The notes under the pieces are model-generated. The model had not been told where the DNA came from. It saw nothing but the letters and a program-made list of their open reading frames with translations, and ran no database searches. A stretch of 52,502 nucleotides of DNA from an uncultured Clostridia bacterium. GTDB lineage: Bacteria; Bacillota; Clostridia; Christensenellales; UBA1242. The stretch is taken from positions 1 through 52,502 of the forward strand of contig CAMVKM010000002.1 of the NCBI GenBank assembly GCA_947168085.1. The letters are read 5' to 3'. Positions 1-52,300 of the stretch are shown piece by piece (position 1 is the stretch's first letter; every line of letters begins with the position of its first letter). The position numbers and the translations under genes were made by a program.

Positions 1-3000
1 ATTGATAGTTTGCTGTTGGCGTAAAGGTTGCAATGTATGTCCCAGCATTTGTTCCACTAACCTGTCCTGAAACTGTTAGTTTGGTTGTGTCATAAGCAGT
101 CCATGAAACATTTTGTAAATTGCTGTTAAAAGTTAGTGTTCCGCTTTGGCTTGGCAATGCACTTGCATCAATATTTTGTTTTGCAATGGTCCAGTCAAAA
201 ATTAGTGTATCAGTTGTGCCATCGCTCCACTTGTAGTTTGCTTTTGGCGAAATTGAAAAAGAATAACTTCCTGCATTTGTTGCGCTTTGAGTTCCAACAA
301 TTTCCATAGTGCTACTGTCAAAACCAGTGATTGTTGGTGCTTGAACTGATCCATTAAAGGTTAAATTTGCACTCATTGTTGGTTTTGTTAGGTTTGCTTT
401 GTTTATCGTCCAACTAAGGGTTATTGGAGCAGTTGTGCCATCACTCCATTTTAAATTGCTTGTGCTGTTTAAATTTATGGTTATTGTGTAAATTCCTGCA
501 TCTATTGCTTTTTCAATTCCATCAATTTCCATTGTGCTACGATTAAAATTATCAAGTTCCAAAATTTGCAAACTTCCATCATAGGTGTATGTTTTATTTT
601 GTAAAACATTGTTAACAGTTTCCTGTGTTAATGTTGGTTTTGTTTGTTGAAAAACAAGCACAGGAAATTCATTTTGTGGAAAATACCAATTTGCTGTAGT
701 AAACGAACTTGGCAATCCACCCGGCCTTGTTCCTGTTGCGGTTGAAATCATTTGAGCCCTTGTTAAAAGTTTTGAAGCATTACTTGTGTTTGTGTAAGTT
801 GTGTTAGTTACACCACTCACTGCTCCACCAAACACATTTTCTGCACAAACATCACTGTTACCAAAGCAGTTTGTTATTGTAAGATTGCTGTAACTGCTAA
901 GTTGAGCACCAACAATGTTACCCATATATAAACTGTTAACATTACTAATAAGAGCTGAATTCCAACAATTTGAAACAGTTACCGTAACAGCAAAACTAGT
1001 AGTTCCACTTTCTAATATTCCAACAATACCTCCAGATCGATCGTTAGCCGTAGAAACAGAACCTGTGTTATAGCAATCTTCAACCAAAACTTTACTTGCT
1101 CCAACCGAAGACACAATTCCACCAGCATGCCTTGCAGCATAAATTGAACCTGTGTTGTAACATCTTTTTACCAAAATGTTGCTTGTTTGGCATTTATTAA
1201 GAAAGCCAAGAATACCGGCCGCTGTATATTTTCCTGAATAAATATGCCCTGTGTTGTAACAATCTGTTATATTTCCTGAACTCGTAGAATCAATACGAGC
1301 ACAAATTCCAGCAGCATCATTTAGTGATGTATTAAAACCAGAAACCCTGCCCGTGTTATGACAATTTGCAATTGTAAAACTATTCAATGAAGAGATAAAA
1401 CCTATAATTCCGCCTAAATCACCAGATCCACTAGAACTAATTAAGCCCTCGTTAAAAGAATTTTTTAAAACCATTGTGTTAATGTTATATTGGGCTTTAC
1501 CAACAATTCCACCAACACTTATAATTCCATAAACAGATCCTTTGTTGTAACAATTGTTAATGTTTAAGTTAGAATTACCCCAACCAATAATTCCACCAAC
1601 ACACTCACCACCATAAACATCACCAGCATTATAACAATTAACAAAATTGCGAGTAACACTTTGTGTTCCACCACTATCTCCACCACCAACAATCCCACCA
1701 ACTCTCATCACAGTTGACGAAGAATTTGATGTGTAAACCATTCCAAGATTATAACAACTAATGCAAGTAAAATCGACAGCAACATCATGGTAATCAACAT
1801 AACCAACAAGACCACCAACTCTACCATTACTCTCAACGCTGTTTACTTTGCCTTTGTTATAACAATTTCTTAAAAACACTTTTGAAGCATAATAACATGT
1901 GCCAATAACACCACCCATATAGGCTTTCCCTGATATTTCACCTGAATTATAAGAATTTGTTAATGTTGTTATGCTTCTTGTATGTCCAACAAGACCTCCA
2001 ACATCATTTTGATAACCCTCAATTTTACCTGAATTGTAACAATCAGAAACGGAGACTTCCGCATTTTCAGAAACACCAATTAATCCACCAACATACTTAT
2101 CTGAAGTGGTTGAAATTTTGGCTGTGTTATAACAATTTTTTAAATATAAAAACCCCATACTTGTTAATGAGTAAAATTTACCTACAATACCACCTGTTTG
2201 AGCGTTTCCAACAATTTCTCCATTATTGTAGCAGTTTTTAATATAAAATGTTGAATTGTATGAGTCTGATACCCGACAAAACCCAACAATTCCACCACCA
2301 TATGAACCGACACAATTTACTTTTCCTACATTAAAACAATTTTCAATAATTCCTGTATTGCTACAAAATTCACCAAGTATACCTCCGGATGTGTTATTAG
2401 AACTTGAAATAATTCCCGAATTTGAACAATTGTAGATAGATATTGTTGCTGCCCCATTCCAAGGGCTACCAACAATCCCACCAACAATGCCGTTTGAAGC
2501 CGTTATATTTGCTTCATTTTTGCAATTAATAATAGTTACACTTCCGGCAACTCTTCCACAAATTCCACCAACCCTGTTATGCGCCGTTACTGTCGCTTTG
2601 TTTGTTAAATTTTCAAGAGTGGTGGCACCATTAACAACACCCACAAAAGATCCAACCCTACCTTCGCCATCAGTGTAAGTACTTGTAACAGATCCACTTG
2701 CAATTGTTAAATTTTTTATGTATCCACCCATCGTTGCAAACAAACCACATTCAGCAGCATTATAATTAATAGTTAAGTTTGAAATGGAAAAATTGTTTCC
2801 ATCATAATAATAAGTTTTAGATGGAAGGGGTGTAAAAGTTTTGCTCCCCATATCTAAATTTGCTGTTTGTTTAAAATATTTTCCATTGTTCAAGTTACGA
2901 ATATAGTTTAAATTGGCTGGAGTTGCAATAATATAGGGATCATCTATAGTGCCAGAGCCTGTTGGCATAGTGGAATCTGAACCATTCCAAGCTGAAGATG

Positions 3001-3172
3001 CAGGATCATCAATTGGAGAAACAATTTCAAGATTTTGTGGTTGTGCTTTTTGTTGTGTTAACTTAACAACTAAAAGCCCCCCCCCCGCAAGGGTTAAAGC
3101 AAGAATTACGCAAATTAAAATAGTCTTCCAATTTTTTAATGCAAAACCTTTAAAACTTTTGTTTGTTTTCAT
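1..3172 (-). CDS. Membrane-anchored GLUG-motif beta-helix surface protein with C-terminal MBG-like Ig repeats. It is partial (3' end lies beyond the left edge) and is absent from the supplied ORF track.
   Basis: Manual translation of the minus strand from ATG at 3172..3170 (GGGGA RBS about 6 nt upstream) stays open to position 1, giving 1,057 codons. The N-terminus MKTNKSFKGFALKNWKTILICVILALTLAGGGLLVV is a signal-anchor. A GSGTIDDPYIIATPANL entry motif follows. I count about 18 repeats of the (N/D)CYNxG ... GG(I/L)VG type, as in the GLUG motif family. The C-terminal part has repeats such as KTYTYDGSLQ..AGIYTITI..NLKWSDG..LSWTI. The track probably missed this ORF because no stop codon lies inside the window. 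Confidence 0.85.
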   Translation of the reverse strand, partial: MKTNKSFKGFALKNWKTILICVILALTLAGGGLLVVKLTQQKAQPQNLEIVSPIDDPASSAWNGSDSTMPTGSGTIDDPYIIATPANLNYIRNLNNGKYFKQTANLDMGSKTFTPLPSKTYYYDGNNFSISNLTINYNAAECGLFATMGGYIKNLTIASGSVTSTYTDGEGRVGSFVGVVNGATTLENLTNKATVTAHNRVGGICGRVAGSVTIINCKNEANITASNGIVGGIVGSPWNGAATISIYNCSNSGIISSSNNTSGGILGEFCSNTGIIENCFNVGKVNCVGSYGGGIVGFCRVSDSYNSTFYIKNCYNNGEIVGNAQTGGIVGKFYSLTSMGFLYLKNCYNTAKISTTSDKYVGGLIGVSENAEVSVSDCYNSGKIEGYQNDVGGLVGHTRSITTLTNSYNSGEISGKAYMGGVIGTCYYASKVFLRNCYNKGKVNSVESNGRVGGLVGYVDYHDVAVDFTCISCYNLGMVYTSNSSSTVMRVGGIVGGGDSGGTQSVTRNFVNCYNAGDVYGGECVGGIIGWGNSNLNINNCYNKGSVYGIISVGGIVGKAQYNINTMVLKNSFNEGLISSSGSGDLGGIIGFISSLNSFTIANCHNTGRVSGFNTSLNDAAGICARIDSTSSGNITDCYNTGHIYSGKYTAAGILGFLNKCQTSNILVKRCYNTGSIYAARHAGGIVSSVGASKVLVEDCYNTGSVSTANDRSGGIVGILESGTTSFAVTVTVSNCWNSALISNVNSLYMGNIVGAQLSSYSNLTITNCFGNSDVCAENVFGGAVSGVTNTTYTNTSNASKLLTRAQMISTATGTRPGGLPSSFTTANWYFPQNEFPVLVFQQTKPTLTQETVNNVLQNKTYTYDGSLQILELDNFNRSTMEIDGIEKAIDAGIYTITINLNSTSNLKWSDGTTAPITLSWTINKANLTKPTMSANLTFNGSVQAPTITGFDSSTMEIVGTQSATNAGSYSFSISPKANYKWSDGTTDTLIFDWTIAKQNIDASALPSQSGTLTFNSNLQNVSWTAYDTTKLTVSGQVSGTNAGTYIATFTPTANYQ
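3077..3086 (-). repeat. Homopolymeric G10 tract (C10 on the plus strand) inside the signal-anchor codons of the GLUG protein
   Basis: Plus strand reads aaaag-cccccccccc-gcaagg. On the coding strand this is CTT GCG GGG GGG GGG CTT (L-A-G-G-G-L), about codons 29-32. It is the only G/C run longer than 6 that I found in the window. Confidence 0.9.
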
Positions 3173-3199
3173 GAGTTTTCCCCTTTGTTTTAAAATTTC

Positions 3200-4156
3200 T
3201 TAATTATTTCTTCGTTTTGGATCAAGAAAAAGTGACAAAACAACAAACACACCAATCAAAACAACTGTACCACTAAGCACACCAATAATGTAAGGCAAAG
3301 TGTTTGTTTTGCTTTTTATTTCCCAAAAAACATCAATGTCGCCTGTTGTTTTTGTGTTCCACTGGTAATTGTAGTAGTCTTTTAATGAAAGTTTTGTTTT
3401 GTAGGTTCCAACATCAGTTGCTTTTCCATAAGAATCAAGAGCAAGAACTTCATCATCAAACCACTCAAAGTAGTTTCTTAAGTCTATTTCTTCACCTGTG
3501 TAAACAAAAGTTTTCTGTTTTAGTTTTGGAACATTTAGTGTTGCTTTTTGTATGGACCAATTAAAAGTTAAATCGTTTGTAGTATCGTTAATCCAAATGT
3601 AATTTGTTTTGTCTTTTAATGAAACTGTTGCCGTGTAATCTCCAGCATTAATTTTTGTTGTGTCACCCGAAAGAGTCATAATGGTTGTGTCAATTGGTTC
3701 GGAAAATTGAATTGACTGCATGGCTTTGTTGTAGGTGAAATTGTTACTGCCAGAAAGCGTTGGCTGAGTTACAACAATTGGTGTTATTTGCCAACCAAGA
3801 TATCTTGTTGCACCTGGCTCGCCATCACTCCAAGCATAATTGTCAGGATCAGATAATGTAATCACAACAACATAGTTTGAATTTGCATCTTTTCTTACCA
3901 AATCACCTTCAAGTTGCATTGTGTCTTGGTCATAACCAGACATCACTTCTTGAATGTTGTAGTTGTTGCCTGAGTACTCAAAAGATGATGTTAAAAGAAC
4001 TGGTTTGTCTAAAAGCGTTTTTTCTGGATCTACTCGAACCTGCGAACTTGGTGTTATTTCATTTTTTTCGTTTTGAACATTCAAAACACCAAAAAGCAAC
4101 AACACAGCAATGCCTAAGACAAAAATTGCTGTAAAAAATTTTGTCGCAATTCTCAT
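3200..4156 (-). CDS. Doubly anchored surface protein (N-terminal signal-anchor, C-terminal TM tail) with three MBG-like Ig repeats
   Basis: The track ORF is 3200..4201. I prefer the ATG at 4156 (MRIATKFFTAIFVLGIAVLLLFGVL) because AAGGAG lies 8 nt upstream. There are three units of about 85 aa with an F/Y-x-Y-x-G ... (A/V)G(D/T)Y ... NY.W ... W.I signature. The C-terminal hydrophobic helix LPYIIGVLSGTVVLIGVFVVLSLFL is followed by a KRRNN tail. The stop is 27 nt upstream of the GLUG gene start, which suggests an operon. Confidence 0.75.
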   Translation of the reverse strand: MRIATKFFTAIFVLGIAVLLLFGVLNVQNEKNEITPSSQVRVDPEKTLLDKPVLLTSSFEYSGNNYNIQEVMSGYDQDTMQLEGDLVRKDANSNYVVVITLSDPDNYAWSDGEPGATRYLGWQITPIVVTQPTLSGSNNFTYNKAMQSIQFSEPIDTTIMTLSGDTTKINAGDYTATVSLKDKTNYIWINDTTNDLTFNWSIQKATLNVPKLKQKTFVYTGEEIDLRNYFEWFDDEVLALDSYGKATDVGTYKTKLSLKDYYNYQWNTKTTGDIDVFWEIKSKTNTLPYIIGVLSGTVVLIGVFVVLSLFLDPKRRNN

Positions 4157-4191
4157 CAATCTTACTCCTTTTTTATTCCTATTATGCAGAT

Positions 4192-4220
4192 AGTATAACA
4201 CAAAAAAATTTTTTTAACAA
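4192..4220 (-). promoter_or_regulatory. Candidate sigma-70/SigA promoter for the MBG/GLUG gene pair
   Basis: Minus strand reads TTGTTA (4220..4215), 17 nt spacer, TATACT (4197..4192). A TG lies at the extended -10 position (TGTTATACT). The -10 is about 35 nt upstream of the ATG at 4156. Confidence 0.5.
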
Positions 4221-4300
4221 ACGATTTTAAGTAATTTTTTTAGACATTCTAAAATTTTTTGAAAATATTTTGGAAAAATGTTTCCTTAAAGTTTGTTTTG

Positions 4301-4309
4301 TGTTATAAT
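4301..4309 (+). promoter_or_regulatory. Candidate extended -10 promoter (TGTTATAAT) for the U32 gene
   Basis: TGnTATAAT lies at 4301..4309, 27 nt upstream of the ATG at 4336. The -35 is weak (TTTCCT at a 17 nt spacer). It is divergent from the 4192..4220 promoter. Confidence 0.45.
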
Positions 4310-4335
4310 TAAAAAAGATTTTGGGGGGAAAACTT

Positions 4336-6660
4336 ATGACAAAAACAGCTGAACTTTTGGCTCCTGTTGGAAATTGGGGCATGCTTAACACTGCCATAAA
4401 CAGTGGCGCTGATGCGGTTTATTTGGGCTTACAAAACTTTAATGCAAGGATGTCTGCAGACAATTTTAATGATGAAAACATCAAAGATTGTGTAAAACTT
4501 TGCCACAGCCATGGCATTAGAGTTTTTGTGACACTTAACACACTTGCAAACAATGATGAAATGAAACAAGTTTTAGAAACAGTTAAAACGGCAGTGGAAG
4601 CAAAAGTTGATGCTTTTATCGTGCAAGATTTTGGAATTGTAAATGTTTTGAAAAATTGTTTTGAAGGGATTGAACTTCATGCCAGCACACAAATGGGCAT
4701 ACACAATCTTGAAGGAGCAAAAATTGCAGAAAGTTTGGGAATTAAACGAATTGTGCTTTCAAGAGAAACAAAACTTGAAGACATTAAACAAATTCACAAA
4801 AACACCAATTTGGAACTTGAATTTTTTGTTCAAGGAGCTCTTTGTGTTGCATTTAGTGGAAACTGTTATTTTAGCAGCTTTATGCAGGATGAAAGTGGAA
4901 ACCGTGGCAGATGCAAACAATTTTGTAGAATGAAATATGTTGCAAGCACTGACAAAAATTGCGAAGAACAATATTTGCTTTCGGCACGAGATTTGTGTTT
5001 GATTGAAAATTTAAAGGAATTAATTGATGCAGGAATTTGCAGTTTTAAGATTGAAGGACGGCTTAGGCGTGAAGGCTATGTTGCTCAAACAGTGCAAAGT
5101 TATCGCCTTGCCCTTGACTGCCTTAAAAACAATAAAATTTTTGACATCAACAAAGAAAAGTTTTTGCTTAAAAAAGTTTTCAGTCGTGGAGACTTTTTGG
5201 AAAGAGCGTATCTTGACACTGGCGTGCCAGATGATGTGATAAACCCAAAAACACAAAATCACTTGGGAATTTTTGTTGGAAAAGTTTTGGATGTAAAACC
5301 TTTTAAAGACCTTTTTAAAGTTACCATAAATTCAACTCACAAACTTTCTTTTGGTGATGGCCTAAAATTTTTGGACGGCGAAAAGCAAATGTTTAGCCTT
5401 GGAGTTGGAAATGTTGAAGAACTTGGAAACAACAATTACAACATTTTTACAAAACACAAAATTAAACCTGGATTTAATGTGAATTTGATTTTGGACAGCG
5501 TTTTTGAGGAAAATTTGCTCAAAAAAACAAAAAAAATTGATTTTTCGGCACAAATTTTTGCATTTGCCGGAAAACCAATCAGTTGCACACTTGAAAGTGA
5601 AAACGTTAAAACCACATTTGAAGGTTGTGTTTTGGAGCCCGCAAAAAACGCTCCCACAACAAAAGAAGAAATTGAAACACAATTTAAAAAACTTGGTACC
5701 ACCGATTTTAATTTGACAAAACTTGAAATTTCTTGTGACAATGTGTTTGTTCCAAAAAGTGTTTTAAATGGATTTAGGCGTAATGCTCTTGAAATGCTAA
5801 AAAACAAAATTATTGATAGTTTTGAGAAAAACATTAATGTTAAAACAAATGAAAAAGAAATTGACAATTACAAAAAATTTAAAGCAGCAAAAACTGATGC
5901 CCTGAACAAAAACGTTTTAATTTTTGATGAAGACAATTTTGAACAATTAAAACAAAACAAAGAATTTTTGAAAGACAGCATTTTGATTTTTTCACCACAA
6001 AATTTTGCAGCAGCAAATTTTGATGATTTTGAAAAGGAATTTGACGATTTTGAAATTGGATTAAATTTGCCAATTATCGCAAACTTTGAAGATACAAAAA
6101 TAATAAAAAATATTTTAGAAAAACACAAAAACTTTTGGGTTGTTGCAAATAACCTATGGGGATTTTGTTTTGCAAAAATTCACAAATTAATAGCGGGAAC
6201 TAACATGAACGTTTTTAGTGATTTTTCAAAACAAACATTACAAAACTTGGGCGCAAAAATTTGCACACTTTCAATTGAACAAGAATTAAAAAATGTTGAA
6301 AGTGAATTTCTTCTGTATGGCTTTGGTTTTGCCACTCTTATGACATTTGCACACTGCCCTTTTAAAACTTTAAACAAAAACTCTTGCCAAAATTGCACCT
6401 TTGACAAAAGTTTGTTTTACAGCGACATAAACCAAAATAAATTTAAAATTAGAAGAATTAAATTAAGCCAATGTTATTTTGAGCTTTTGAATTCAAATGC
6501 TATAAACAACATTGGTTTGTTCAAAGAAAAAATGATGCTAGATTTAAGAAATATTGATGATGAAAAACTTAAACAAATCGCAAAAAATTTAAGCTTGAAC
6601 AATAAACTAAAATTATTTAAAAACGAAATTAATGGAAAAATCTTTAAGCAAGTTTTGTGA
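4336..6660 (+). CDS. Peptidase U32 family protein (long form, collagenase/PrtC-like)
   Basis: The U32 signature E-x-F-x2-G-[SA]-[LIVM]-C-x4-G-x-C-x-[LIVM]-S is matched by EFFVQGALCVAFSGNCYFSS. The N-terminus ELLAPVGNWGMLNTAINSGADAVYLG is typical of the family. The preferred start is ATG 4336 (MTKTAELL), preceded by a GGGGGGAA RBS. The track's TTG at 4321 lies inside that RBS. Confidence 0.85.
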   Translation: MTKTAELLAPVGNWGMLNTAINSGADAVYLGLQNFNARMSADNFNDENIKDCVKLCHSHGIRVFVTLNTLANNDEMKQVLETVKTAVEAKVDAFIVQDFGIVNVLKNCFEGIELHASTQMGIHNLEGAKIAESLGIKRIVLSRETKLEDIKQIHKNTNLELEFFVQGALCVAFSGNCYFSSFMQDESGNRGRCKQFCRMKYVASTDKNCEEQYLLSARDLCLIENLKELIDAGICSFKIEGRLRREGYVAQTVQSYRLALDCLKNNKIFDINKEKFLLKKVFSRGDFLERAYLDTGVPDDVINPKTQNHLGIFVGKVLDVKPFKDLFKVTINSTHKLSFGDGLKFLDGEKQMFSLGVGNVEELGNNNYNIFTKHKIKPGFNVNLILDSVFEENLLKKTKKIDFSAQIFAFAGKPISCTLESENVKTTFEGCVLEPAKNAPTTKEEIETQFKKLGTTDFNLTKLEISCDNVFVPKSVLNGFRRNALEMLKNKIIDSFEKNINVKTNEKEIDNYKKFKAAKTDALNKNVLIFDEDNFEQLKQNKEFLKDSILIFSPQNFAAANFDDFEKEFDDFEIGLNLPIIANFEDTKIIKNILEKHKNFWVVANNLWGFCFAKIHKLIAGTNMNVFSDFSKQTLQNLGAKICTLSIEQELKNVESEFLLYGFGFATLMTFAHCPFKTLNKNSCQNCTFDKSLFYSDINQNKFKIRRIKLSQCYFELLNSNAINNIGLFKEKMMLDLRNIDDEKLKQIAKNLSLNNKLKLFKNEINGKIFKQVL

Positions 6661-6786: not shown

Positions 6787-6990
6787 ATGAAAAACAACAT
6801 TACAACAAAAGATTTACAAGCCCTGGATGAAATGATGATACTAGAAAATTGGATAGCAACAAAATTTTATTTGCACTCAAGTAACGCTAAAGATGACAAA
6901 CTTAAAAAAACACTTCTTGAAATGGGAAAAACTCATTTAAAACAACACGAAGAAATTTTAAGTTATCTTGAAAAAGGAGGTGAAAAATAA
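6787..6990 (+). CDS. Small helical protein, partner of the CotF-like gene
   Basis: 67-aa ORF with a GGAGGTG RBS upstream. Its TAA stop overlaps the next ATG (TAATG). Its function is suggested only by the coupling to the Coat_F-like neighbour. Confidence 0.55.
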   Translation: MKNNITTKDLQALDEMMILENWIATKFYLHSSNAKDDKLKKTLLEMGKTHLKQHEEILSYLEKGGEK

Positions 6991-7268
6991 TGCTTCCAAC
7001 CGAACAAGAAATATTGCAAGATGGACTTTGTGCAACAAAATACTTAATGCAAATGTGCACAAAAAATCAAATTGAAGGCAGCAACAAACATTTAAGAACT
7101 TTGTTTGAACAAATGCATAAAACAGCATCTGAACACAATTTTAAAATTTTTGAAATGATGCAAGAAAAAGGTTATTACAAAACCATGCCAACCGATGAAA
7201 AGCAAATTCAGCAAAAACTTGCAATGCACAAAGATATGCAAAACAAACTTGAAAACAAATTCTGTTAA
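6990..7268 (+). CDS. Spore coat protein F-like (Coat_F / ferritin-like four-helix family) protein
   Basis: TEQEILQDGLCATKYLMQMCTKNQIEGSNKHLRTLFEQMHKTASEHNFKIFEMMQEKGYYK resembles the Coat_F pattern: E..L.D.L...K.....Y, then N..LR..F, then GWY/GYY. A GGAGGTG RBS lies inside the upstream ORF. Confidence 0.65.
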   Translation: MLPTEQEILQDGLCATKYLMQMCTKNQIEGSNKHLRTLFEQMHKTASEHNFKIFEMMQEKGYYKTMPTDEKQIQQKLAMHKDMQNKLENKFC

Positions 7269-49300: not shown

Positions 49301-52300
49301 AAAACTGTTCCTGCTTTTTCATAAATCATCAAGTCAACACGGCTTTCACCAAAACCCTCATAACCTTCGCCTGGTTGAGTTTGTCCACCTTGTTGTCCAC
49401 CAAAAGGATTGTGTGTTGAAATGATGTTTTTTGCTTTATCAGAAGCAACAACTCCCCAAAGACTGTAAATGCCCTTTTCAATAAATGGAACAACACTTCC
49501 ACCTTCATCTTTTGTTAGTGATTGAAGTTTGTTTATCCACTCTGTTATGTTCGCGCTATAAGAAATTGAATTTTCATCACCTAAAAGATTTATTTGAATT
49601 GGTGTTTCAAATTCATCCACACTAACGCTTCCCAAAACAGAAGTTGTGTTGTCCCCATTAAATGTTGGAACTGTTATGGTAATTTGATCGTAAGGATAAC
49701 ATGTTTGCAATCCCCCCATTCCATCATCAACAACATAACACCACTTGCCTTCGCCATCAAGAACAAAACTGTTAGACACAACAAAGTAGTCACTTAAAAC
49801 AAAGTCATATTTTGTTGCCACATTTTTGTCATCATTTGCCTTTGTCGCTTTCCAAGTAAGTGTGTAATCTGTTAAATCTTCACTTATGGACAAATTTAAC
49901 CAAACTGTTCTAGAAATTTCAAGCGGAAGATTAACTTCACGATAAATGGTTCCACCCCTAAAGATTGTGTGAACTTTTTCTAATTCATCAGTAACATAAA
50001 AATCTGAAACAACCATTGTAATAATACAATCACGAACAACTGATGTTAACTGAGATTCAAGATTTAATCGAGTTTTTCCAGCTTCAGTTTGAAAATCACT
50101 GTCTTGCGATATTGCATTATAAACAAGAGTTGCATAACCTTCTCGGTCTAAGTAAACCGTGTAAAGAAGATTTTTTGAGTGGTTTGAAAGCAAAACTTCT
50201 GAAACGTCATTAAATGGATCATCCCAAACAAGGAAGTAAGTTCCATCTAAGTCAATTGTCATGTCAAAATAAGGCAAATCAACTCCACCCACATAAAATG
50301 TGTCGTAGACAACCGCTGAAAAACCAACAATTTCAGTGTTTGATTTCGAATAAACCAAAGCACCATAAATTTTCGTGTAGTCACTGGCATCAAAATTTTG
50401 AATTACAAACGAATTTTCTGTTGTTGTAAACCAAAAATCCATGTCTGACACACTGTCATAAAGATCAGCGTAATCTTCAAAATTTTCATTGTAAAATGGA
50501 TAATTTTCTGATTCACTTGTGTAAGAAAAGTAAAGTTTGTTCAATCTTTGTTCAAGATAAACATCTTCCATAACTCCACCGGTTGTTTTATCATAACGGT
50601 AAAGTTTTACCGTGTTTTGTTCTATGTCCCACTCATAGTAAACATAACCATATGAAGAACCTTCAACAGCATCCCAAGTAATTGTTCCATCAGAAAGCAT
50701 TTTAAGGTTTGTTGGTGCTGGCGTTCTTAATGATGTTATGATTGTGTAAGATTTTGCTTCTGACTCAGTTTTAAACACAAAACTTTCTGGCATTGGGTTT
50801 GAAATCATTTCTTGATAAGCATCTGTTGGGTTTGGATACTTGTCAAGTTTTATCACATGTTCAAAATCAGTTGATTGTGTTGCATCAAAACTTGCTGCTG
50901 TTACTGAAAATTCAAAGTTGTAATCAAATGTTTGCCATGTAATGACGCCCCCAAGGCCTCTTGGATCAAAGCCATTTATGTAACCAATTGGAATTTTGTA
51001 CTTAAACAAAATTGATGATTCGGTTTCTTCATAATTGTAGTAATATGATGAATCTTGATTTATGCCAAGTTCAAAATTAGTTGTTTGTGGCACAAAATTT
51101 GCTTCATCACTTTTTGTTGAAATAGTTAAATTAAAACCTTTAAAGTTGTCTGTAATCAAACTTTTTAATGTTAAAATGCTTACCAAAACTGGAGTTGTTG
51201 AACCAATTTCACCTGGAGTAACAACAACACTTTCAACAGGGTCAAGAGTGCTGGCATAGTAAACATAAATTGGGTTAGACCAACCACTTTCAGTTGCTAT
51301 GGAAGTCTCTTGGAATTTTATGGTAATTTCATAAATGCCCTGCTTGCTCTCAAAAAGTTCTTTTGTATCAATAAAATAACCATAAAACTCTAAGGTTCTT
51401 GAAACTCTCATAACATTTATGTCTTTAATTTCTTTGTCTATGACTGTGTTTCCATAAACATTTGAAATTGAAACAGTTATTTTGGCGTTTGTTTTTGAGT
51501 TGTCATAATTGCTGTTTGCTGTTTGTTCAATGTAAACAAGATTTTGTTTTGTTGCCAATTCATCACTTGTAATGTAAGCTTTTAAAAGTGCGTCATTATC
51601 TTCCTTAAAACCAATTCGTGGAGCACGAATGCTGATTGACTTTGGTTTAAAGCCACGAGCTGTAGGAGCAGAATCTTTAAAATGTTTAGCATCATTTCCA
51701 AGCACAACAAGTTCCAAACGATAGCTGCTTCCAGAAATCATTCCTGTCATGCCATAGTATTTGAAAGTGTAAGTGTCAGTTTTTTCTTCTAGTGTTGCAA
51801 TCAAACTTGTTTCTGTTGTCGAAACTTGTTCTAAAACAGTCCAAATTCCATCAATCAAAACAAATTCGCGTTCCATAGAATCAACAAATGTAAATCCATT
51901 GTCTGTTGCCTTTATTGCAAAAGTTATCATAATTGAAGTGCTTGCAACATTAAACAAACTTAATTTGTAACCACCAGCATCAACTGCTTCAATTTGGCCA
52001 TCTTCTGTTCTGTTTTTTCCTTGAATTTTGGCAAAAGTTGCATTAAGTGTTGGCACTGTTTGTCCATCTTGTTGACTGCCCGTAAAACCATCAACAAAAT
52101 CAATTCTTGAACTATCAAAAATTTGGCTTACTTCGTAAACAATTTCTGCACTTCTTTCACTTGAAACACACGTTCCATCTTCTTGAATCCATGATGTGTT
52201 GCTTGCAACAACAAAAATTCTGTAATTTCCATTGCTTACATTGCCAGCATTTAAGTAGTCACTTAAATTTGTGCTTAATGTTATGGTGTTGTTTGAAAAT

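Follow-up and report, generated by a model that had tools for sequence, protein, structure and literature searches.

The window, i.e., the whole stretch of 52,502 nucleotides (nt) that was analysed, represents the complete contig CAMVKM010000002.1 of an uncultured Clostridia bacterium from ruminant gut. At its left end, two genes for putative surface proteins were predicted one behind the other on the minus strand: a gene for a protein of 318 amino acids (aa), henceforth called p318, and the 5′ part of a gene for a large protein with Glug motifs, henceforth called the Glug-protein gene. The element in question is a run of ten G (G10) within the first codons of the Glug-protein gene, which reads as C10 on the plus strand and as G10 on the minus (coding) strand. 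The run begins 86 nt past the ATG and thus constitutes a simple sequence repeat (G/C mononucleotide run of at least about 8) inside the 5′ part of an open reading frame (ORF). A first-pass annotation, made from the letters of this DNA, had assigned the run to codons 29–32 and had proposed it as a phase-variation switch; the coordinates as well as the codon numbers were confirmed. All features of the locus are listed in Table 1.

Table 1. Features at the left end of the window; positions refer to the window, and alleles X8 and X12 are described in the text
Feature	Positions	Strand	Remarks
Surface-protein gene with Glug motif, 5′ part	1..3172	-	at least 1057 codons, open to the contig end
TAA stop, frame of G8, G11 or G14 (...GGGAFSC*)	3063..3065	-	product 35–37 aa; G11 = 36 aa
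Nucleotide-conserved core of 47 nt, GTAATTCTTGCTTTAACCCTTGC-G10-CTTTTAGTTGTTAA	3063..3109	-	45–47/47 identity with the X8 and X12 contigs
Hydrophobic h-region, signal peptide or signal anchor, residues 17–36 (TILICVILALTLAGGGLLVV)	3065..3124	-	translation and hydropathy read from the sequence
TAG stop, frame of G9 or G12 (...GGGF*)	3070..3072	-	product 33–34 aa; G9 = 33 aa
G10 homopolymer	3077..3086	-	codon 29 third base and codons 30–32 (GCG GGG GGG GGG, Ala29-Gly30-32); proposed slipped-strand switch
ATG start and upstream Shine-Dalgarno sequence AAAGGGGAAAA	3170..3186	-	ATG = 3172–3170; GGGG in the Shine-Dalgarno sequence
Upstream co-directional gene p318 (318 aa)	3200..4156	-	hydrophobic N- and C-terminal segments, same repeat module as in the Glug protein

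The N-terminus of the Glug protein was translated as MKTNKSFKGFALKNWK-TILICVILALTLAGGGLLVV-KLTQQKAQPQ, i.e., a Lys-rich n-region precedes a hydrophobic segment of 20 residues (Kyte–Doolittle mean of about 2.6, computed by hand), and the Ala29-Gly30-32 codons of the G run sit in the middle of this segment. The N-terminal anchor is followed by Glug repeats of the GG[IL]VG type and by C-terminal repeats of ~75 aa, which also occur in the upstream gene. The Pfam search assigned the protein to the Glug family (PF07581; 25.5 bits at a gathering cut-off of 20.5, E = 1.5e-5), and its repeat region resembles PDB entry 3n6z, a “putative immunoglobulin A1 protease” (E = 2.6e-6). Based on the n-region, the hydrophobic segment, the Glug motif, the similarity to 3n6z, and the shared repeats, the Glug protein is predicted to be surface-exposed. 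The best database homologues, retrieved with the N-terminal 330 aa as query, were Glug proteins carrying PF07581 at 29–37% identity; no orthologue was found in this protein search, and the 60-aa leader alone as query returned no matches. Just three of the Glug homologues have a Gly-Gly-Gly in their leader, and all of these are located past the cleavage site and outside the h-region.

Translation of tract-length variants left the Glug-protein ORF open with G7, G10, and G13. The assembled state was found to be ON, as the first-pass annotation had held, with the ORF open over 1057 codons, and its claim that a change of +1 or −1 truncates the protein after about 30 residues agrees with the products obtained for G9 (33 aa) and G11 (36 aa). 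An in-frame restart with a ribosome-binding site was not seen near the frameshift stops. We consider the chance to be somewhat better than even that the G10 is a functional slipped-strand ON/OFF switch of the large Glug-motif surface protein, i.e., a candidate contingency locus. In brief, with G10, G7, or G13 the ribosome would pass through the Ala-Gly(n) codons halfway along the signal anchor and go on to translate the remainder of the protein (at least 1057 aa). Replication slippage that gains or loses one or two G would shift the frame, and in the shifted frame a stop 2–5 codons on would leave a peptide of 33–36 aa whose hydrophobic segment is cut short; the surface protein would not be made until further slippage restores expression. 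The organism would be expected to undergo slippage by one G in either direction appreciably often, and OFF variants presumably exist that may serve, e.g., the escape from phage, from host antibody or from protozoal recognition, or the saving of cost.

According to the first-pass annotation, no G/C run in the 52,502-nt contig other than the G10 exceeds 6 nt, and this uniqueness was borne out, the next longest runs being 6 nt in length (4323–4328 and 49712–49717). In dinucleotide-preserving shuffles of the window, G10 occurred in 1 of 100 (mean 0.01 per window), which is unusual, if not overwhelming across a scan of many windows. The argument from codon usage is stronger than that from the shuffles: GGG makes up 5.4% of the Gly codons and GCG 6.7% of the Ala codons (12 ORFs of the window), and the probability of GCG GGG GGG GGG given AGGG, calculated from this codon usage, is about 0.067 × 0.054^3, i.e., about 1e-5. 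The Gly codons were also avoidable, as had been proposed, in that none of the seven other Gly-Gly-Gly tripeptides in the window contains a GGG codon (encoded as GGT GGT GGA/GGC/GGT). In relatives with a comparable GC content, about 87 kb of sequence contained no G/C run of at least 7, and a long G run in a genome of 34% GC is expected to decay over time. By the shuffles, the codon usage, the relatives, and the diverged alleles described below, the tract is over-represented and maintained against chance and codon bias.

Among the alternatives, an incidental or merely tolerated run is the main rival. Frameshifts would then be purged and changes of three nucleotides alone would survive, such that the number of Gly residues (2–4) in the anchor helix varies and the protein is not switched ON and OFF. 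This explanation is rather improbable, though it takes the largest share among the alternatives considered; its first difficulty is the codon choice just described, which is improbable at about 1e-5 where GGG is shunned in every other Gly-Gly-Gly tripeptide.

Alleles of the tract in other populations were read from Logan contigs with depths of 2–5; Logan contigs drop minority variants. In searches with window sequence, the matching runs were from ruminant gut; two kb-scale searches recovered no more than 0.21 of the sampled words, while in a search with the 66-nt core run X1 contained four of four words. The 264-nt contig of X1 aligned to positions 2869–3132 without gaps and with a single mismatch, and its tract is C10. 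In run X2, the contig reads ...TTAACAATTAAAAG-C7-GCAAGG... (AAAAG precedes the C7), with an identity of about 89% up to the ATG; the resulting G7 corresponds to one Gly codon fewer with the frame kept, and the X2 sequence diverges 3′ of the core, deeper into the gene. Runs X8 and X12, which stem from another study than X1, had an uninterrupted C10 in both contigs, and their leader was translated as LNKFKTILLF-VILALTLAGGGLLVV-NFTSKNLQKQ. No contig spanning the tract was present in runs X3–X7, X9–X11, and X13–X16. Orthologues lacking the tract had been named in the first-pass annotation as evidence against a switch; instead, the diverged ruminant-gut alleles were uninterrupted. Across populations, a length of ten G was thus shared by the window, X1, X8, and X12, whereas X2 had G7; all of these were in frame (four low-depth contigs), and the tract is real, persistent in diverged alleles, and length-variable between populations.

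Artefactual poly-G is usually located at read or contig ends. The tract in the window lies mid-contig within an unbroken ORF (more than 1057 codons), the frame of which it keeps, and G10 was assembled independently in runs of two studies. An artefact, i.e., a miscounted homopolymer or poly-G arising from the two-colour chemistry of Illumina, therefore has a very small probability, even though the X12 contig starts exactly where the tract starts and G-tracts are error-prone in Illumina data (“G’s end” effect, PMC9187656). The start of the X12 contig is explained equally well by an assembly branch due to length heterogeneity, by a drop in coverage, or by Illumina problems with G-tracts.

The same alleles bear on the notion of a tolerated run. 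All of them are in frame (G10, G10, G10, G7), and the sole length change observed amounts to exactly one codon, both of which fit a tract that is under selection for the reading frame alone. However, the tract is unbroken where its flanks have fallen to about 50–60% identity, although synonymous changes of G to A or T should have interrupted it, and assemblies and contigs are biased to the majority state, which is probably ON.

Within the X8 and X12 contigs, the conservation is concentrated in the core given in Table 1 (15 codons), with at most two differences in 47 nt and with X12 being exact over the 33 nt that it covers, while the flanks on both sides are about 50–60% identical to the window (hand alignment). 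Sharp boundaries between core and flanks are seen at 3063–3109 in X8 and X12, which suggests gene conversion or constraint at the nucleotide level. A search for a second copy of the 47-nt core in the window and in the loci of relatives was negative. From these edges (core 45–47/47 against flanks of about 50–60%) as well as from the divergence of X2 3′ of the core, it could be argued that the core of ~47 nt acts at the level of DNA or RNA, i.e., as a recombination or gene-conversion junction by which diverged bodies of surface proteins swap their leaders, or as a horizontally spread leader cassette, of which the G run is simply a part. We regard this as improbable: no second copy of the core is present in the window or in the relatives’ loci, no significant RNA structure was predicted (z = 0.22), and flanking inverted repeats of the invertase type were not found.

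Two further mechanisms were considered and rejected. For phase variation by an inverton, the inverted repeats detected in 2600–4400 were weak and AT-rich and did not exceed chance level, and none of the nine nearest ORFs was identified as a recombinase in a Pfam search. For an intrinsic terminator or attenuator in the leader, the scan flagged a CCCTT/GGGGG stem followed by CTTTTAG (3077–3093, minus strand), the fold of which did not differ from that of shuffled sequences (z = 0.22).

A parallel to the Glug leader was obtained from termite gut. Metagenome contigs of the Joint Genome Institute (JGI) were scanned for the motif TTAACCCTTGCGGGGG-N(0-12)-CTTTTA, which yielded one match, L001 (termite-gut contig Ga0209737_10000665), with 44% GC. 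At L001 3597–3666, the motif is located inside a signal peptide and in the same frame as in the Glug leader (MLRLKPKAALLAALLTLAGGG), and about 30 nt are shared between the two (TTTAACCCTTGC-G10-(T)CTTTTAG). No homology was found between the secreted L001 protein and the Glug protein. Translated length variants of L001 gave 754–755 aa with G9 and G12 (ON), 36 aa with G10 (OFF), and 23 aa with G11; the frame is thus broken in the assembled G10 state, and an annotation of this protein would lack the signal peptide. Two types of flanks were distinguished in the termite-gut data, with type 2 having three substitutions beside the tract. Flank type 1 was joined to G10 in the JGI assembly of L001 and in run X17 and to G9 in run X19, and flank type 2 to G9 in run X18 and to G10 in run X19. 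G9 and G10 were consequently each found on both flank backgrounds, as would be expected if slippage recurs, at contig depths of 3–6 where homopolymer miscalls are possible. Out-of-frame alleles were assembled as dominant sequences in this analogous leader, which speaks against the run in the Glug-protein gene being just tolerated.

L001 was found by querying this same motif, and about one chance match to its 22 fixed bases is expected in a contig collection of this size (rough estimate); it is the extra G’s and the signal-peptide context alone that make the match non-trivial. By analogy, the leader architecture appears to toggle between ON and OFF in nature, which for the Glug-protein gene is support and not proof. 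The recurrence of ~30 nt in the gene of an unrelated protein, in a termite-gut organism with 44% GC, and the joining of the core to differing upstream and downstream flanks in the termite-gut runs, would also fit a core that acts as a DNA or RNA site; this is again offset by the way in which the match was obtained, with about one match expected by chance. A related proposal is a portable phase-variable secretion leader (30–47 nt, ...TTTAACCCTTGC-Gn-CTTTTAG...) that was recombined onto unrelated surface proteins of distant gut bacteria (the ruminant Clostridia-like metagenome-assembled genome (MAG) and the 44% GC termite-gut organism) and would confer ON/OFF switching on them, which we likewise hold to be doubtful. 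Upstream of the termite-gut gene, L001 3765–3845 contains tandem heptamers (CTTACAG/CTTAGAG) and a palindromic cattccggcgtatgccggaatc element; these repeats reached k-mer depths of 1500–5500 in termite-gut runs and represent a very high-copy element resembling repetitive extragenic palindromic (REP) sequences.

Several observations weigh against a slipped-strand switch in the Glug-protein gene. An out-of-frame allele of this gene was not seen, four of four alleles being ON (three times G10 and once G7); these alleles are majority sequences in Logan contigs of depth 2–5, in which a mixture within a population is not visible. The evidence from termite gut concerns another protein in another organism and was likewise read from low-depth contigs. 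In the nearest relative fragment, L002, the Glug-protein gene is missing from the syntenic position, so that the comparison of tracts was limited to metagenomic alleles. Finally, there is one such tract in 52.5 kb despite three other giant surface-protein genes in the window, and the absence of a visible “phasome” is also what a tolerated run would predict. Of the original proposal of a phase-variation switch, the anatomy and the frame consequences were thus upheld, while for its variation the alleles of the Glug-protein gene seen were all in frame. The tract shows the defining anatomy in its length, its position, and its effect on the frame, belongs to a gene with a predicted surface product, and is maintained against codon bias; the G10 is a well-supported candidate for a slipped-strand switch as judged from sequence.

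Regarding the neighbourhood of the tract, p318 and the Glug-protein start are separated by a gap of 27 nt, in which a consensus scan detected no terminator-like match, and the two genes probably form one operon for cell-surface proteins. The module of ~75 aa (…NY.W.D.T….F.W.I.K…) is present on the minus strand in p318 (3200–4156) and in the C-terminal part of the Glug protein (2–925; BLASTP E = 3e-18), and had no significant Pfam match (weak He_PIG only). Three consecutive giant ORFs of 5367, 2419, and more than 4049 aa occupy 16310–52500 on the minus strand and were nearly blank in Pfam (weak Big_2 only), and both contig ends fall within giant or repetitive genes. The run at 4323–4328, the sole other run of six G, is part of the Shine-Dalgarno region (GGGGGGAAAACTT-ATG) of a U32 peptidase gene that is transcribed divergently; as annotated publicly, this peptidase has 797 aa and starts upstream of the ATG taken here (774 aa).

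The U32 peptidase of the window is at most 53–57% identical to proteins of “Clostridia bacterium” MAGs. In L002, the U32 peptidase is 76% identical, the right-hand gene order is kept, a giant-ORF counterpart of 5305 aa is conserved, and the homologue of p318 has 47% identity. Comparison of L002 1–1469 with window 1–4156 revealed an acyl-carrier-protein gene after the p318 homologue in place of the Glug-protein gene, which is therefore accessory, relocated, or at least non-syntenic. Two small ORFs of 67 and 92 aa on the plus strand of the window (6787–7268) match a pair in L002 (4006–4487) in length and position, and the second ORF of the L002 pair, a Coat_F (spore coat) protein, suggests that the organism is a spore-former. 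The family-level relatives L003–L006 had neither synteny with the window nor a G/C run of at least 7. In the GTDB representatives, a scan anchored on the U32 peptidase as well as a scan for the DNA motif gave no matches, i.e., the species or the motif is absent from the representatives searched, and the motif scan of viral contigs was also without a match.

If the G10 acts as a switch, an uncultured, low-GC, and probably spore-forming Firmicute of the ruminant gut would share the poly-G contingency mechanism of classical mucosal pathogens for varying a giant adhesin-like surface protein. Such a switch would join the small number of cases documented for gut commensals (Bifidobacterium) and would provide a concrete locus for studying within-host microdiversity straight from metagenomes. 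Such tracts also cause mis-annotation, in that truncated or N-terminally shortened surface proteins without signal peptides enter MAG catalogues, e.g., L001. As the mechanism is already well known, the conceptual gain would be modest unless the leader is indeed a shared cassette; slight additional interest comes from the conservation of the leader core at the nucleotide level and from its counterpart in termite gut.

In Gram-negative bacteria, Neisseria opa genes carry CTCTT repeats in their signal-peptide codons, and poly-G genes are found in Campylobacter jejuni, Helicobacter, and Haemophilus. These classical contingency loci share the same mechanism (PMC11868660, PMC5953494) and, as is proposed for the Glug-protein gene, turn translation of a surface protein ON and OFF by frameshifts in a simple repeat that lies in its leader or 5′ coding part, whereas they number tens of loci per organism, in some cases without MutS/MutL, as compared to one in 52.5 kb of a probable spore-former here. 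Among Firmicutes, the poly-A tract at the 5′ end of Listeria monocytogenes inlA undergoes frameshift variation at about 1000-fold the point-mutation rate (PMC2831843). As in the Glug-protein gene, the homopolymer lies 5′ in a gene for a surface protein, but poly-A (A7/A8) is common in an AT-rich genome, while the G10 opposes both compositional and codon bias.

The closest precedents are the pilus G-tracts of Bifidobacterium breve and nanH3 of Gardnerella. In B. breve UCC2003, intragenic G10/G11 tracts are located in bbr_0113 and bbr_1889 of sortase-dependent pili, and their slippage was measured in the mouse gut by maximum-depth sequencing (PMC9187656). As proposed for the Glug-protein gene, tracts of G10/G11 there control a surface adhesive structure of a Gram-positive gut commensal by replication slippage; the differences are a high-GC host in which G runs are less exceptional, a tract that splits the pilin ORF deeper within the gene, and an annotated state that is OFF. 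The nearest of the precedents is the sialidase gene nanH3 of Gardnerella piotii, with a poly-C tract of 8–14 about 100 nt from the start and just after the signal peptide. Every third length only gives the full protein and the others give about 37–44 aa, and length variants were found within colonies by cloning and Sanger sequencing (bioRxiv 10.1101/2020.09.16.300947). In contrast to nanH3, where the tract follows the signal peptide and variants occur within colonies, the G10 lies mid hydrophobic core, encodes Gly, and is known from assembled contigs alone, and the proteins belong to different families in an actinobacterium and an uncultured Clostridia-like Firmicute, respectively. Common to both are a Gram-positive cell-surface protein, a G/C homopolymer by the signal-peptide codons, and annotation artefacts arising from out-of-frame tracts.

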